From Octopus vulgaris (taxonomy: Eukaryota): 64,000 bases of DNA. The stretch covers positions 134,664,001-134,728,000 of the forward strand of contig OX597816.1 in the NCBI GenBank assembly GCA_951406725.2, in the 5' to 3' direction. Shown piece by piece: positions 5,187-50,335 of this stretch. Position 1 is the first letter of the stretch, and each line of letters starts with the position of its first letter. Position numbers and translations under genes: made by a program. Below the pieces are notes generated by a model. That model saw only the letters and a list, made by a program, of their open reading frames with translations. It was not told the origin of the DNA and did not search any database.

Positions 5187-31862
<26,676 letters not shown>

Positions 31863-31868
<6 letters not shown>

Positions 31869-31984
31869 TTTGCTGCTGCCCTCTATACACCTTGGTAAAG
31901 TATTTAAAGTGAGATAGTTTGTTTCATTACTGAATGAAACATCTTCAATAATCTTTTACCAAGGTGTGGGCAGCAGCATTGACC
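31863..31984 (+). promoter_or_regulatory. Long stem-loop immediately 3' of the Sec codon (candidate Sec redefinition element)
   Basis: Stems: GGTTAA/TTGACC, TGCTGCTGCCC/GGGCAGCAGCA, ACACCTTGGTAAA/TTTACCAAGGTGT, TGTTTCATT/AATGAAACA. Structure is read from the sequence; function is inferred. Confidence 0.6.
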
Positions 31985-32020
31985 AAAACAGTGTGGTGCT
32001 AAATTGGTTACTTGCATTTG

Positions 32021-32099
32021 TAATATGCTTCTATGACGATTATGTTTTTGAAATCCTTCATTTGAGGAAGAAACTGATCTGATCCTGTAACCAGTATTG
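32021..32099 (+). promoter_or_regulatory. SECIS element (type II) in the TGR 3' UTR
   Basis: ATGAC (32033) and TGAT (32080) form the kink-turn core. Helix II is GATTA-t-GTTTTT / AGAAAC-TGATC. Unpaired AAA at 32051-53, apical mini-stem TCC..TCA / TGA.GGA, helix I TAATA / TATTG. Confidence 0.92.
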
Positions 32100-32759
32100 T
32101 GCCATATCTTAGAAATTCTGTCAACAAAATATTCATCTATATGTATCAAAAACTTTAGTACAACTTTTGCAAATTTGAATTCACTATATTAGTGGGGTGT
32201 TGGGAAAGGGCTAAGGCTATATATTAGACTAAAATACATTACTGTCCCTTTTGGTTTTTCCTTCTCAGTTTTGTTGGTTGGTGTTTTCATCTGATACTTG
32301 GTAAAATAAATACCAGTATCTTATCAAGTGAAATCATTGCATTAAACCACTATTCTCCTGACGAAATTGGCCTTGTGCCTATTAAAGAAATTATTTAAAA
32401 ATGTTTTCCTACTAAGGCCGTGAGCTGGCAGAAATGTTAGCATACCGGGCAGAATGCTTAGCGGTATTTTGTCTGTCTTTGCTCTTTGTTCAAATTCTGC
32501 CAAGGTCATCTTTGCCTTTCATTCTTTCAGGGTCGATAAATTAAGTACCAGTTACATACTGGAGTTGATCTAATCGACTGGCCCCTTCCCCCAAAATTTC
32601 AGGCCTTGTGCCTAGAGTAGAAAAAAAACAATGTTTTACTACTGTATTTTTTTCAATAATTATAGAACCAAGGGCAGTCATAGGTTAATGTGTTATAGAG
32701 AAAAAGATATACTTGAATATTTTAATGACAGGATTTCTTGAAACATTGAATATTAATAC

Positions 32760-39828: not shown

Positions 39829-42538
39829 TGTAGTGATCCTATATAACGGTGCGCGCTCGCGCACCGTCCATTTCTGTTTCGCGCGTGCGAGGTTGGTGCT
39901 TTCACCACCGGAAGTAGGACCATTTGCCTACGTGGCAGTTTAGCCGCGTGGCAAGGGGATCATAGGACGTTGACCACTAGCGTCCAGTAAGCAGTGACTT
40001 GAGACACGGCTATCGAAGGTACAACACGTATATTTCTCTCTGTCCGGATTTGATAGCAGCAGTCAGCCTTTTCATAGAAGAGGACGCGTATTATCTTCGT
40101 TTCTCCCTGAAATTTGTTGCCGACCACATCATCTTCCTTTCTCCGGACGCCATCTTTGACCAGTGTCGTTAGCATTTGAACACTGTAAATTCTACAGCGA
40201 TAAAGTTCAGGTGAGACACATCCATACCAAAGGGATACCAAGTCCACCACTTATTTGTTACTGTCATAAGAGAATAAAGTAGATATATATTTTTTACGTC
40301 TGCGTTTTGTTGTTTCTGACTGGTAGAATCTGGATATTAAAGCAACGGAAAGTGATTGCACCAACTTGCACCCCAAAAGTGCAAGAGAAGACGTTCACTT
40401 TCGTTACACTGGTGACCTCCGACGTGATTCTGGTCTTAAACCAGAGATCACTTAACAACAAAAAAATCCAGTTTTTCTGCCAAGTCCGAACACGATCAAC
40501 TCTACGCATTCATCTTTCGACGATTTGTTTCCGGTCCCCTCAAACAGTTATAGAAGGAGCCTTTCTTATTCTTCAACAATAATGACGGACGCCATCATAT
40601 CATCGATGCCTTTTCTCTACCGTCATCGCCATCGTCGTCTTTCGACTTCATGTCGTCGCTATCTTCGTCGCCATCACCACTAAGAACAATGTGTCTCAAG
40701 TCCACCACAGTCGCCTTCATCACCGTCGCCTTCAACACCGTCGACCTCAACAAGATGTAAATAGCAACTCGCGGAAGTTTAGCCCACTCGCTGTTCGTGT
40801 ATACACACCGGAATTAACAGCACAGTCTATCTGCGAGATTCTTCTGTACCCAGTTAACTTGTCACAGCATTGAAGCCACAACCGCTACACGACATGTGTT
40901 CAACCGGCATCTGCATTTGTGATCTCAACATTCTGTTACAGAACGAACTGCTATTATGCATCAGGCTATTACGGACTGGTAAATTAACTCCATCTTGTCT
41001 GAAATAGCTCTGAGAGACTTTTTTCCTATGCGCTGTATTTTTATCTTGCTCGCATTCACCTTGTTTGTATTTCTGTCGCACACACGTACACACACATAAA
41101 TGCTATCTCTCTCACATACATACGTCACACATGCCTTTTCTCGCTTGTTTTTTCCATGCTAATTTGCCTTTGTGGACACACCTCATTTCTGTAAGACCCT
41201 AGGGGTCACGTATACATAGAGAGGGTTGTTTGTCCATTATAACGAGCCAGCATGTCACACTTTTGTTCCTGCACGAACGAGGCATATTCATTGCTGTTTT
41301 TCGGTCTGGCAAGCCCTATTGCATTCATGCACCTTTGCTCTGCACGTGTACTGCCTTGTTTTTGCAACACGTTTGCGTTAGCTTAATTCTTTTCCCGACT
41401 CCTAGAACGTCGGATGTTCACATGCGCTGCGCCCATGTATAGGCGTAATTTTTCCCTGTTAGACCCCTGTTGGTCACGTAATTAACAGAGAAAATTATCT
41501 GTCTCGCGCATCACACCAGCATGCTTGCACTGTCACCTTGCTAACCTTTCACTTTTAGCCGAAGCACTGTCTGCCTTTTGTGTTACTGGCGATCTATCTG
41601 TCGATTCCATTTTCTCTCCTGCAGCAATTGATTTAACTGCTATTTCGCAGGATCAACTACCTTTAGAGGAGTTGGATTTAACTTCGCCTAGGTTCATTAA
41701 CTGTGAGTTTGCTTTCCTTCCGCTCCCTTCAGCGGAAGGCTCTATACTTTGTGACGTATCCACCTTCACGCATGCACTTTTGATTTTGCTCATTTTGAGT
41801 ATTTTTTCTCTTTTTTCCTTTTGGTAAATTTCTTATGTATGTTATAAATTCTGCCATTTTTGTATATTTTTTGCTATTTGGTTATCTGTTATCCACCTTG
41901 AGTTTTATAGTCACTACAAGGAATTTTGTGTCGTGCTTATGCACTGGAGGGGAGCTTTGTAGTGATCCTATATAACGGTGCGCGCTCGCGCACCGTCCAT
42001 TTCTGTTTCGCGCGTGCGAGGTTGGTGCTTTCACCACCGGAAGTAGGACCATTTGCCTACGTGGCAGTTTAGCCGCGAGGCAAGGGGATCGTAGGACGTT
42101 GACCACTAGCGTCCAGTAAGCAGTGACTTGAGACACGGCTATCGAAGGTACAACACGTATATTTCTCTCTGTCCGGATTTGATAGCAGCAGTCAGCCTTT
42201 TCATAGAAGAGGACGCGTATTATCTTCGTTTCTCCCTGACATTTGTTGCCGACCACATCATCTTCCTTTCTCCGGACGCCATCTTTGACCAGTGTCGTTA
42301 GCATTTGAACACTGTAAATTCTACAGCGATAAAGTTCAGGTGAGACACATCCATACCAAAGTGATACCAAGTCCACCACTTATTTGTTACTGTCATAAGA
42401 GAATAAAGTAGATATATATTTTTTACGTCTGCGTCTTGTTGTTTCTGACTGGTAGAATCTGGATATTAAAGCAACGGAAAGTGATTGCACCAACTTGCAC
42501 CCCAAAAGTGCAAGAGAAGATATTTCACTTTCGTTTCA
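39829..42538 (+). mobile_element. Non-autonomous LTR retrotransposon (Gypsy-like; TRIM/LARD type)
   Basis: LTRs 39829-40408 and 41958-42538 (TG..CA, nearly identical); TSD AGTT; PBS TGGTGACCtCCGACGTGAT (tRNA-Trp) at 40410-28; PPT GGAGGGGAG at 41946-54; no recognisable gag or pol. Confidence 0.92.
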
Positions 42539-48740: not shown

Positions 48741-49412
48741 AAATAATAAATCTCTGAACGAGGTATAAACAGTAGCTGCACGACAATGTGAAGTATATTT
48801 GTCACTTAAATGTTGCTAACCACTAAGGGTGGATGCTACTGTAGCTTGTAGCCTCGGGAGAACATCTTCTCCAGCTGGCTATTGTCACACTTTCTGTGCC
48901 CTATCAGTATTTGCAAAGGGAAGCCATCCTTCCCATCGTCGACCTGATACACACGGACCCGGGTTTCTGGATATTTACCCGTCGTCAGCGCACAACAATC
49001 ACCGGTCTTCGATACGAAGGGGTCCCAATGCAAATATATATATCCTTTTTCCAATGACGTAAAGTCACTGATCTCGAAAAAGTGTAAACAAGCAATAATA
49101 AATCTCTGAACGAGGTATAAACAGTAGCTGCACGACAATGTGAAGTATATTTGCCACTTTTCGAGATCAGTGACTTTACATCATTGGAAAAAAGATATAT
49201 ATATTTGCATTGGGACCCCTTCGCATCGAAGACCGGTGATTGTTGTGCGCTGACGACGGGTAAATATTCAGAAACCCGGGTCCGTGCGTATACTCATAGG
49301 GCACAGAAAGTGTGTCAATAGCCAGCTGGAGAAGATGTTCTCCTGGGCTACAAGCTACAATAGCATCCACCCTTAGTGGTTAGCCACATTTAAGTGGCAA
49401 ATATACTTCACA
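48741..49412. repeat. Inverted repeat (arms ~260-300 bp) whose spacer is a direct duplication
   Basis: 48787-49083 matches the reverse complement of 49154-49412; spacer 49093-49159 copies 48741-48807. Confidence 0.9.
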
Positions 49413-50335
49413 ATAAAGGAAATGTTATTCACAAACTAAAGTCAACTGAATCGAAAATTTTGATCTTGTGTTGCTTTTTAAGAGTAATAACTTTTAAGTA
49501 GTCTTAAAAAGGAATTACTTTTTAGCAACTTTAAATTTTATCGATCAATACAAAGGCTTTAAATTTTGTTTCATTACTGAATTATTGTTTTCTTGTCACG
49601 ATCATGTTTTACCTTCCATGTTGAAATAATCTTCTAACGAGCTAAATCAGTGATACAGTTTCCCATTCTCTAAATAGCGGTCTTTTGGACCGATTTCGTG
49701 TAAGACAATTTTTCCACGGACCGGGGGATCACGTGCGTAATAGAACGCAATAAAGTGTGTAGTATATAGTTTAATTATTACATATATATTGCATATGTGT
49801 GAATTCACACGACAAAAACCTTTTCGAACGAGCAACACAGATTCTACGGCTCCATACTTTGAAATGACTAAACATTAACTGCTATTGGAACTTACATACC
49901 ATGCACAGGAAACTTTTTTACCACTTCTATACAACATTTTCCTCGAATAAAGGAACTGCAACTACAATATCTTTATATATCTTATTCCTACTTTCATTCT
50001 CTTATTTCCCTCTATATTTCCTATCTCCTCCTTTTTCATAATAATTCGAACTCAAATATTTCCTCAATTTAACCTTCTCACACTGTCTCTGATGAATGGA
50101 TATCCATATTATCCCAGAAGCAGCTGTAAAACTATTTCATTATAACTGTCCTGAAAACTCCTCACAGCCTCTCATTCTCTCTAATATATATATATGCATG
50201 CTAATACAAGACCTACATTAGGTTCCTCACTCGTATCACTCTCGAACCAAGAGTTTAACTACGGTCTGACCATAGCACTTAGCGTTACCTGACACTCTTT
50301 GGGTCTTCTAGATACCAATACCTCTCATAACTTCG

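Follow-up and report, generated by a model that had tools for sequence, protein, structure and literature searches.

It has long been asked how a SECIS can reach the ribosome at the right UGA from hundreds of bases away. A strong hairpin that begins at the first base after a Sec UGA in Octopus vulgaris prompts two questions: does this structure take part in decoding the UGA, and is it particular to the octopus? The hairpin lies in a 64,000-nt stretch of contig OX597816.1 (the window), whose relevant features are collected in Table 1. The penultimate exon matches the Octopus vulgaris protein cluster P0001, which carries Glutaredoxin, Pyr_redox_2 and Pyr_redox_dim domains and is thus a Grx and TrxR protein, and the gene is therefore octopus TGR. 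A motif scan of the upstream exons found the CPFC glutaredoxin motif, GGGSGG, CVNVGC and GIHPT. At the 3' end of the reading frame, the TGA is followed by GGT and then by TAA at 31866-31868; a TrxR without its penultimate Sec is two residues shorter and inactive. In one contig of run X1 (contig 2), position 31800 is spliced to penultimate-exon sequence and the contig continues through 32360, so the hairpin is present in the spliced TGR mRNA, the evidence for transcription being this splice junction, as the runs carry no RNA label on record. An AATAAA is found at 32305, yet the same contig continues beyond 32360, and the UTR may be longer or have several ends. Among related proteins, the Argonauta TrxR1-like sequences P0002 and P0007 group together in the tree (99/98), which suggests a lineage-specific duplication.

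Table 1. Features of the octopus TGR 3' end, in window coordinates
Feature	Position	Strand	Basis
TGR penultimate coding exon	30554..30685	+	motif scan; 100% identity over 44 aa to cluster P0001
Last exon, coding part	31800..31868	+	translation; ends VEAGGC-U-G-stop
Sec UGA, penultimate residue	31860..31862	+	downstream type II SECIS and family C-terminal motif
Gly codon and UAA stop, 5' strand of the outer 6-bp helix (partner 31979-31984)	31863..31868	+	folding
5' strand of the basal helix (+9 to +19 after the UGA), conserved element	31871..31881	+	pair probability; X23 contig; 44 TrxR ends
5-nt bulge in the 5' strand, between basal and second helix	31882..31886	+	folding; length and sequence differ in X23
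5' strand of the second helix (14 bp, partner 31954-31967)	31887..31900	+	folding; 9 of 10 core letters kept in X23
AT-rich hairpin top including a 9-bp helix (31920-31928 with 31933-31941); variable loop region	31901..31953	+	about 25% GC, weaker pairing
Continuous 3' strand of the second, basal (31968-31978) and outer helices	31954..31984	+	folding
Type II SECIS	32003..32095	+	own pattern script and folding

The first-pass annotation had described four stacked helices directly after the Sec UGA, and all four were found where it placed them. The segment 31860-31984 folds into these helices with an energy of -55.9 kcal/mol (z -9.39), and none of 200 shuffled sequences was equally stable. When the 541-nt context 31800-32340 was folded, pair probabilities were 0.83-1.0 for the outer 6 bp, which include one G-U, 0.69-1.0 for the 11 bp of the basal helix, 0.66-1.0 for the 14 bp of the second helix and 0.58-0.76 for the top 9 bp, with the SECIS forming alongside the hairpin. 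Some details were revised: the helix counted as the third by the annotation is present but has 14 bp instead of 13 bp by folding; the GC-richness ascribed to the hairpin holds for the basal arms only (73%), the whole having 38% as against 32% in the rest of the UTR and 36% in the window; and the distance to the SECIS, given as about 35 nt, comes to 18 nt when measured to helix I (32003) and to 48 nt when measured to the AUGA core (32033). The SECIS consists of helix I (32003-32011 with 32087-32095), the core formed by AUGA at 32033 and UGAU at 32080, an AA at 32051 and an apical ministem. The hairpin itself is without SECIS features, the sole SECIS call in the downstream region being the one at 32033, outside the hairpin. 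A predicted 9-bp helix (31991-31999 with 32099-32107) prolongs the SECIS below helix I, and 6 unpaired nt then remain to the hairpin.

The part of the hairpin that carries the conservation is not the one first singled out. The annotation had presented sequestering of the real stop codon as the point of the structure, yet the stop is paired in just 17 of the 44 TrxR 3' ends described below, so this emphasis was misplaced. The outer 6-bp pairing over the stop is not the conserved core; the conserved part is the basal helix. In the octopus, this 11-bp helix starts 2 nt past the UAA, which leaves an 8-nt spacer after the UGA, encloses 86 nt and closes at +116, counted from the first base after the UGA. 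By folding, it still forms when the bases up to 31870 are removed. The stop-codon bases would sit inside the mRNA channel of the ribosome during UGA decoding.

A diverged relative of the octopus sequence was found in run X23, in which a 2,801-nt contig aligns with 31845-31878 with 2 differences. Its 30-nt upstream loose end encodes ETTKSSGLNV, and similar proteins form the sister clade of octopods in the tree (100/100), from which we infer that the source is likely a non-octopod cephalopod. Compared with the window by eye, the coding part is identical at 14 of 30 positions and has 1 of 10 third positions in common, whereas the basal 5' strand is intact apart from a terminal C-to-U change. In both length and sequence the bulge is different, and the core of the second 5' strand is identical at 9 of 10 positions, followed by divergence. 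The visible region is confined to the 5' strands, no contig piece lying on the 3' strand or the SECIS, which is not proof of their absence; as the 3' strand is unseen, this contig shows constraint on the paired segments and not covariation within cephalopods.

For a wider comparison, metagenome contigs were scanned for TrxR, giving 80 loci, 74 of which have a usable Sec-type end. L017 (too short), L067 (no last exon found) and L068 (UGA-UAG end) were left out, and L051, L058 and L072, which have non-Sec ends, were left out of the Sec set and served as controls. Together with the window, the Sec-type ends dereplicate to 44, a convenience sample that includes related members. Judged by best matches, some loci are corals (73-90% identity, to named coral proteins) and some are green algae (72-82% to Micromonas commoda). 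Averaged over the 44 ends, the 5'-pairing probability peaks at 0.70-0.87 from +11 to +18 and dips at +20 to +22. With +11 to +18 as the scoring interval, which was picked after the profile was seen, a pairing score of at least 0.8 is reached by 34 of the 44 Sec-TrxR ends, the octopus included, and in 16 of 23 rough lineage groups, as compared with 15 of 103 other ORF stops, 2-7 of 32-43 shifted anchors and none of the three non-Sec TrxR ends. A duplex test without a span limit gave a similar separation (31 of 44 ends versus 0-5 of 35-44 shifted anchors). The first score was missed by 10 ends and the second by 13, no convincing partner was seen in L019 and L049, and an exact 22-nt pattern spanning the UGA and the basal arm had no match in the metagenome contigs.

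Covariation had been proposed in the first-pass annotation as a check on the structure, and the outcome differs among groups. In 14 green-algal ends (alignment A4, with hand-set start points and 14 of 16 rows, L040 and L042 being left out), 5 of the 8 basal pairs have both bases substituted, and none of 500 shuffles matches the covariation score; in slid registers, pairing drops to 28-57%. Among six coral ends, 99.4% of cells are paired and covariation is weak (18 of 500 shuffles), and the cephalopod 3' strand is unseen. The positional peak, the controls and the algal covariation bear out the suggestion of a second cis-structure that goes with the Sec codon, and from these comparisons a basal helix conserved at the same position in Sec-TrxR mRNAs across eukaryotes is well supported. 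Alignment A2 was rejected with its green-algal 5' strands out of register, as was the cross-phylum alignment A3, which is too gapped to count pairs. A bulge-tolerant helix-length statistic was also rejected for poor discrimination (37 of 44 ends versus 50% of shuffles at 8 bp), and an anchored energy within 125 nt is weak (16 of 44 ends beat all 20 shuffles; P 0.027 versus other stops).

Several other regularities were seen in these ends. The motif UGYUGYU recurs in the 5' strand of nine of the 44 (the window at 31871-31878, L001, L007, L019, L048, L056, L060, L074 and L076), and UGCUGCUG is common to the 5' strands of octopus and mouse Txnrd3, which hints at sequence-specific recognition or deep homology. 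A layout of basal helix, 3-6 nt 5' bulge and second helix is found in the window, L002, L018, L033, L044, L056, L060, L061, L069, L077 and L048, and also in human TXNRD2, the bulge being a possible protein-binding or bending site. At the protein level, L009, L012 and L074 have C-U followed by Ser or Val, not Gly, before the stop, and Euplotes TR1 and TR2 end in C-U-S. L068 (1675-1760; UGA then UAG) and L077 have C-A-T-UGA instead of C-UGA, with a strong downstream stem in both; from the sequence, these are possible variant C-terminal C-X-X-U motifs.

We then considered where the 3' strand of the helix lies relative to the SECIS. SECIS cores were called with a simple pattern script and not with SECISearch, and 35 of the 44 ends were analysed, seven having no call and two doubtful calls being dropped; for L008 the second-ranked call was taken. 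Over these 35 ends, the distance from UGA to core is 77-246 nt. Yet the gap that separates the partner of +13 from the core falls within 45-70 nt in 24 of the 35 ends, for a null mean of 10.6, and in 10 of the 16 groups, where the null gives 5.2 (P 0.011), the band having been set post hoc. As a rule, irrespective of how long the loop is, the 3' strand lies about 50-70 nt ahead of the core. The gap is 59 nt in the octopus, with the partner of +13 at 31974, and 61 nt in four coral ends. The remaining 11 gaps lie outside the band, the full range being 36-160 nt, and most of the larger ones hold a second long hairpin. The loop in the homologues ranges from a few to about 420 nt, and the UGA-SECIS spacer is predicted to be folded throughout in most loci. 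L048 has the same 5' motif without a local stem, and its partner was therefore expected, ahead of looking, about 60 nt before the distant SECIS. A perfect 12-bp partner is found at +433 to +444, with the core at +498, that is, a gap of 59 nt across a 420-nt loop, and the fold of the whole region shows a basal helix, a 5' bulge and a second helix, like the octopus. The proximity of the 3' strand to the SECIS across loci thus lends support to the earlier idea that the hairpin would shorten the effective UGA-SECIS distance, as modelled from the predicted folds. In the octopus, the 170-nt spacer collapses to about 63 nt. The collapsed path length was nevertheless set aside as a measure because folded RNAs generally have their ends close together. 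The octopus value is near the minimum UGA-SECIS distance given for Dio1 in the available text of PMC3316567, 51-111 nt.

The same arrangement can be traced in mammals. The mammalian sequences were those printed in Figs S1-S3 of PMC3737529 (mouse Txnrd3 in Fig S3), and were counted by eye and not computed. In human TXNRD1, the stretch from +8 to +24 has its partner at +183 to +198, in blocks of 10 bp and 6 bp on either side of a 1-nt bulge, and the SECIS core is at +251, giving a gap of 58 nt, although our stop-to-core count exceeds the 221 nt stated in PMC3737529. In mouse Txnrd3, +9 to +21 forms 13 bp with +125 to +137, the gap being 53 nt (47-53 nt depending on the CAG register). In human TXNRD2, +9 to +18 pairs perfectly with +175 to +184 (10 bp), beyond which come a 5' bulge and another helix of 10 bp; here the gap is 85 nt and includes a 25-nt hairpin. 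For Euplotes TR1, the stem is local and the gap is 84 nt.

Local stems at this position have been described before. The stem-loop of Euplotes crassus TR1 (Turanov et al. 2013, PMC3737529) belongs to the same family and has the same start position and the same location between UGA and SECIS, and it is very likely the same element as the conserved TrxR helix. In the passages of that paper available, it is described in one gene as a local hairpin, and its conservation, long-range form and spacing to the SECIS are not noted. The PSL/SL1 of C-terminal-Sec mRNAs is known from SELENOS and predicted for SelI, SelK, SelO, TR1 and TR2 (Bubenik 2013, PMC3628699; Cockman 2019, PMC6844570; both as excerpted). 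It resembles the TrxR helix as a stem right after a penultimate-Sec UGA and stop, and SL1 of SelS begins 9 nt past the UGA and covaries. It differs in that, according to these excerpts, the PSL of SelS forms a local hairpin of 34 nt, a long way from its own SECIS, and in that PSLs close within the first 30-50 nt of the 3' UTR, unlike the helices of the octopus (+116) and L048 (+444). As PSLs were predicted from those first 30-50 nt, the TXNRD1 and TXNRD2 partners 170-190 nt away could not appear. The SelS PSL was first reported to promote insertion and was later found replaceable by unstructured sequence, in the portion of PMC6844570 at hand.

The SELENON SRE is likewise a conserved stem a few nt 3' of a Sec UGA that acts with a 3' UTR SECIS (PMC3159437, PMC8704476 and PMC6844570, in extract), and in the octopus both the stem start at +9 after the Sec UGA and the phylogenetic conservation that characterize SREs are found. 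The SELENON element, of proven activity, is a compact coding-sequence hairpin of 16 bp whose spacer measures 6 nt, whereas the TrxR helix, known here by geometry and conservation, lies in the UTR, with an 8-nt spacer and a loop of any length. The SRE screen folded +1 to +60 only, by the available account in PMC3159437, so the long-range form could be missed. A further likeness is to the readthrough stems of alphaviruses and of Drosophila kelch and headcase (Firth et al. 2011, PMC3159437, in part), which have a 10-14 bp basal stem, an 8-12 nt spacer and a long unconserved loop; the octopus helix shows this geometry, with 11 bp, 8 nt and variable loops in its homologues. In the sections of that source available, those stems have no SECIS, serve near-cognate readthrough and place the 3' strand freely, whereas the TrxR 3' strand tracks the SECIS. 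The claim that such an element was undescribed thus does not hold for local stems, which are known in Euplotes TR1 (PMC3737529) and predicted in human TR1 and TR2 (PMC6844570), and it stands for the long-range form: the literature searched, which had few subscription papers in scope, gave no account of long-range helices in TrxR or of UTR structures in cephalopod TGR, and the long-range helix is absent from the passages seen of the reviews PMC8704476, PMC13059024 and PMC12936836.

A role of the basal helix in Sec decoding is likely, as far as the modelled geometry can tell. The reading that we prefer, held with about even confidence, is that the octopus hairpin is a form of the conserved Sec-TrxR helix, which at the mRNA entrance slows the ribosome and brings the SECIS near. 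With the UGA in the A site, the first approximately 8 bases after it would be in the mRNA channel; the outer 6-bp helix would by then have melted open, which would leave the 11-bp basal helix as the first barrier. In the literature, a structure spaced by 8 nt sits at the unwinding site of the ribosome and, by analogy, extended stems located 8-12 nt past a stop codon increase readthrough by as much as about 10-fold (both PMC3159437, in extract). A basal helix that resists unwinding would favour Sec-tRNA over the release factor. The spacer would be looped out. The 3' strand lies close to the SECIS, at a spacing that varies rather little, and this would keep the SECIS-SBP2-eEFSec complex near the ribosome at the moment of UGA decoding. 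The ribosome would afterwards unwind the helix and read Gly and UAA, and the content of the loop would be free to vary.

The published experiment closest to this model concerns Euplotes crassus TR1, in which the stem lies 10 nt past the UGA and neither an 8-nt disruption nor a 52-nt deletion affected Sec insertion in HEK 293 cells (PMC3737529 Fig S23, as available). The assay used a 75Se gel read-out of an overexpressed foreign gene with a short spacer. A gel-based read-out, a foreign host and a short spacer mean that the result weakens the positioning model for TXNRD1 and TGR without excluding it; under that model, the deletion would be expected to be neutral, and the disruption would not. 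One alternative is a purely local Sec redefinition element, in which the helix only slows the ribosome or hinders the release factor, its spacing to the SECIS being an incidental outcome of how the UTR evolved. It would agree with a spacer like those of SELENON (6 nt), SelS SL1 (9 nt) and viral readthrough stems (8-12 nt), with the dispensable loop of VEEV (in the excerpt of PMC3159437) and with the spread of gaps over 36-160 nt. A local barrier, however, has no need for a 3' strand that tracks the SECIS over loops of a few to about 420 nt, and the Euplotes TR1 stem is dispensable; we regard this explanation as unlikely. The helix may also have been selected for a role other than UGA decoding, such as insulating the SECIS from spacer misfolding, mRNA stability, protein binding or shaping of termination at the UAA two codons further on. 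Deletions published without loss of Sec insertion (Euplotes TR1, FLAG-SelS and a SelK reporter, as given in partial sources) and the predicted folding of the whole spacer in most loci speak for this, but an insulator needs no fixed start at +8 to +12 after the UGA, and none of the three non-Sec TrxR ends, a small number, reaches the pairing score, which leaves such a role quite improbable.

An origin in the octopus lineage finds still less room. A cephalopod-specific dsRNA substrate, whether an ADAR guide, as the first-pass annotation had suggested, or a pre-miRNA, could make use of the approximately 30-nt continuous 3' strand, and coleoids edit RNA heavily. The spliced X1 contig, however, carries 0 changed letters over 31800-32360, 58-60 of 60 sampled words matched across 20 runs, and the helix is conserved in algae, corals and mammals, far outside cephalopods, all of which argues against the ADAR idea. 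Contigs drop minority variants, so the X1 contig speaks against majority editing, and minority editing would be invisible in it. An Rfam scan of the hairpin gave no family at gathering score (best 28 versus 100 bits), and MIR2934, MIR1508, mir-297 and SNORD29 were rejected as its identity with scores far under the gathering thresholds. The motifs of the hairpin arms are absent from the supplement text of PMC9699675, which may not contain miRNA lists. We consider such a substrate very improbable. Run X22 had no contig over the stretch, which is not proof of absence. Finally, the hairpin could be a neutral relic of a MITE or of a local inverted duplication, in a window that does have stronger transposon-like palindromes, for example at 17775-17957. 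As the annotation had it, the window has no other copy of the hairpin, the best other match being an AT-rich 18-mer at 49565. The copy search in contigs agrees: in run X15 (2,225 million letters, possibly the DNA's own source), a single contig spans 31860-31984 at 80% likeness, and four short chance pieces matched elsewhere on the stretch, which argues against a MITE family, the copy number being judged from this one contig set and contigs being able to miss copies. With 5' strands conserved against saturated third positions in the X23 contig and homologous helices across eukaryotes, this explanation is largely refuted and retains next to no weight. As for the palindromes of the window in their own right, those at 17775-17957 (87 nt, 97%, in a TGR intron) and 48947-49291 (134 nt, 96%) are likely MITE-type elements, the former folding more stably than the TGR hairpin, and two near-identical GC-rich structured stretches, 39851-39975 and 41976-42100, lie about 2.1 kb apart.

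Beyond the octopus, we put forward tentatively, with doubt outweighing belief, that TrxR mRNAs across eukaryotes, including those of human TXNRD1, TXNRD2 and TXNRD3, may carry an overlooked third recoding element: a long-range helix in which the stretch immediately after the Sec codon pairs with a strand some 55-60 nt upstream of the SECIS core, and which would dock the SECIS on the ribosome exactly at UGA decoding. TR1 and TGR insert Sec only close to the natural site, a position dependence that has been attributed to the SECIS itself (PMC3737529, in the sections available), and TXNRD1 expression persists after loss of Secisbp2 (PMC9599142). If true, the docking helix would help account for this restriction of TR1 and TGR to the vicinity of the natural C-terminal position and for the persistence of TXNRD1 without SECISBP2. 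The defined helix coordinates in human TXNRD1, TXNRD2 and mouse Txnrd3 make the positioning model testable, and they mark two short UTR stretches where variants could matter. Even if it were without effect on Sec insertion, a helix kept from algae to humans needs an explanation.
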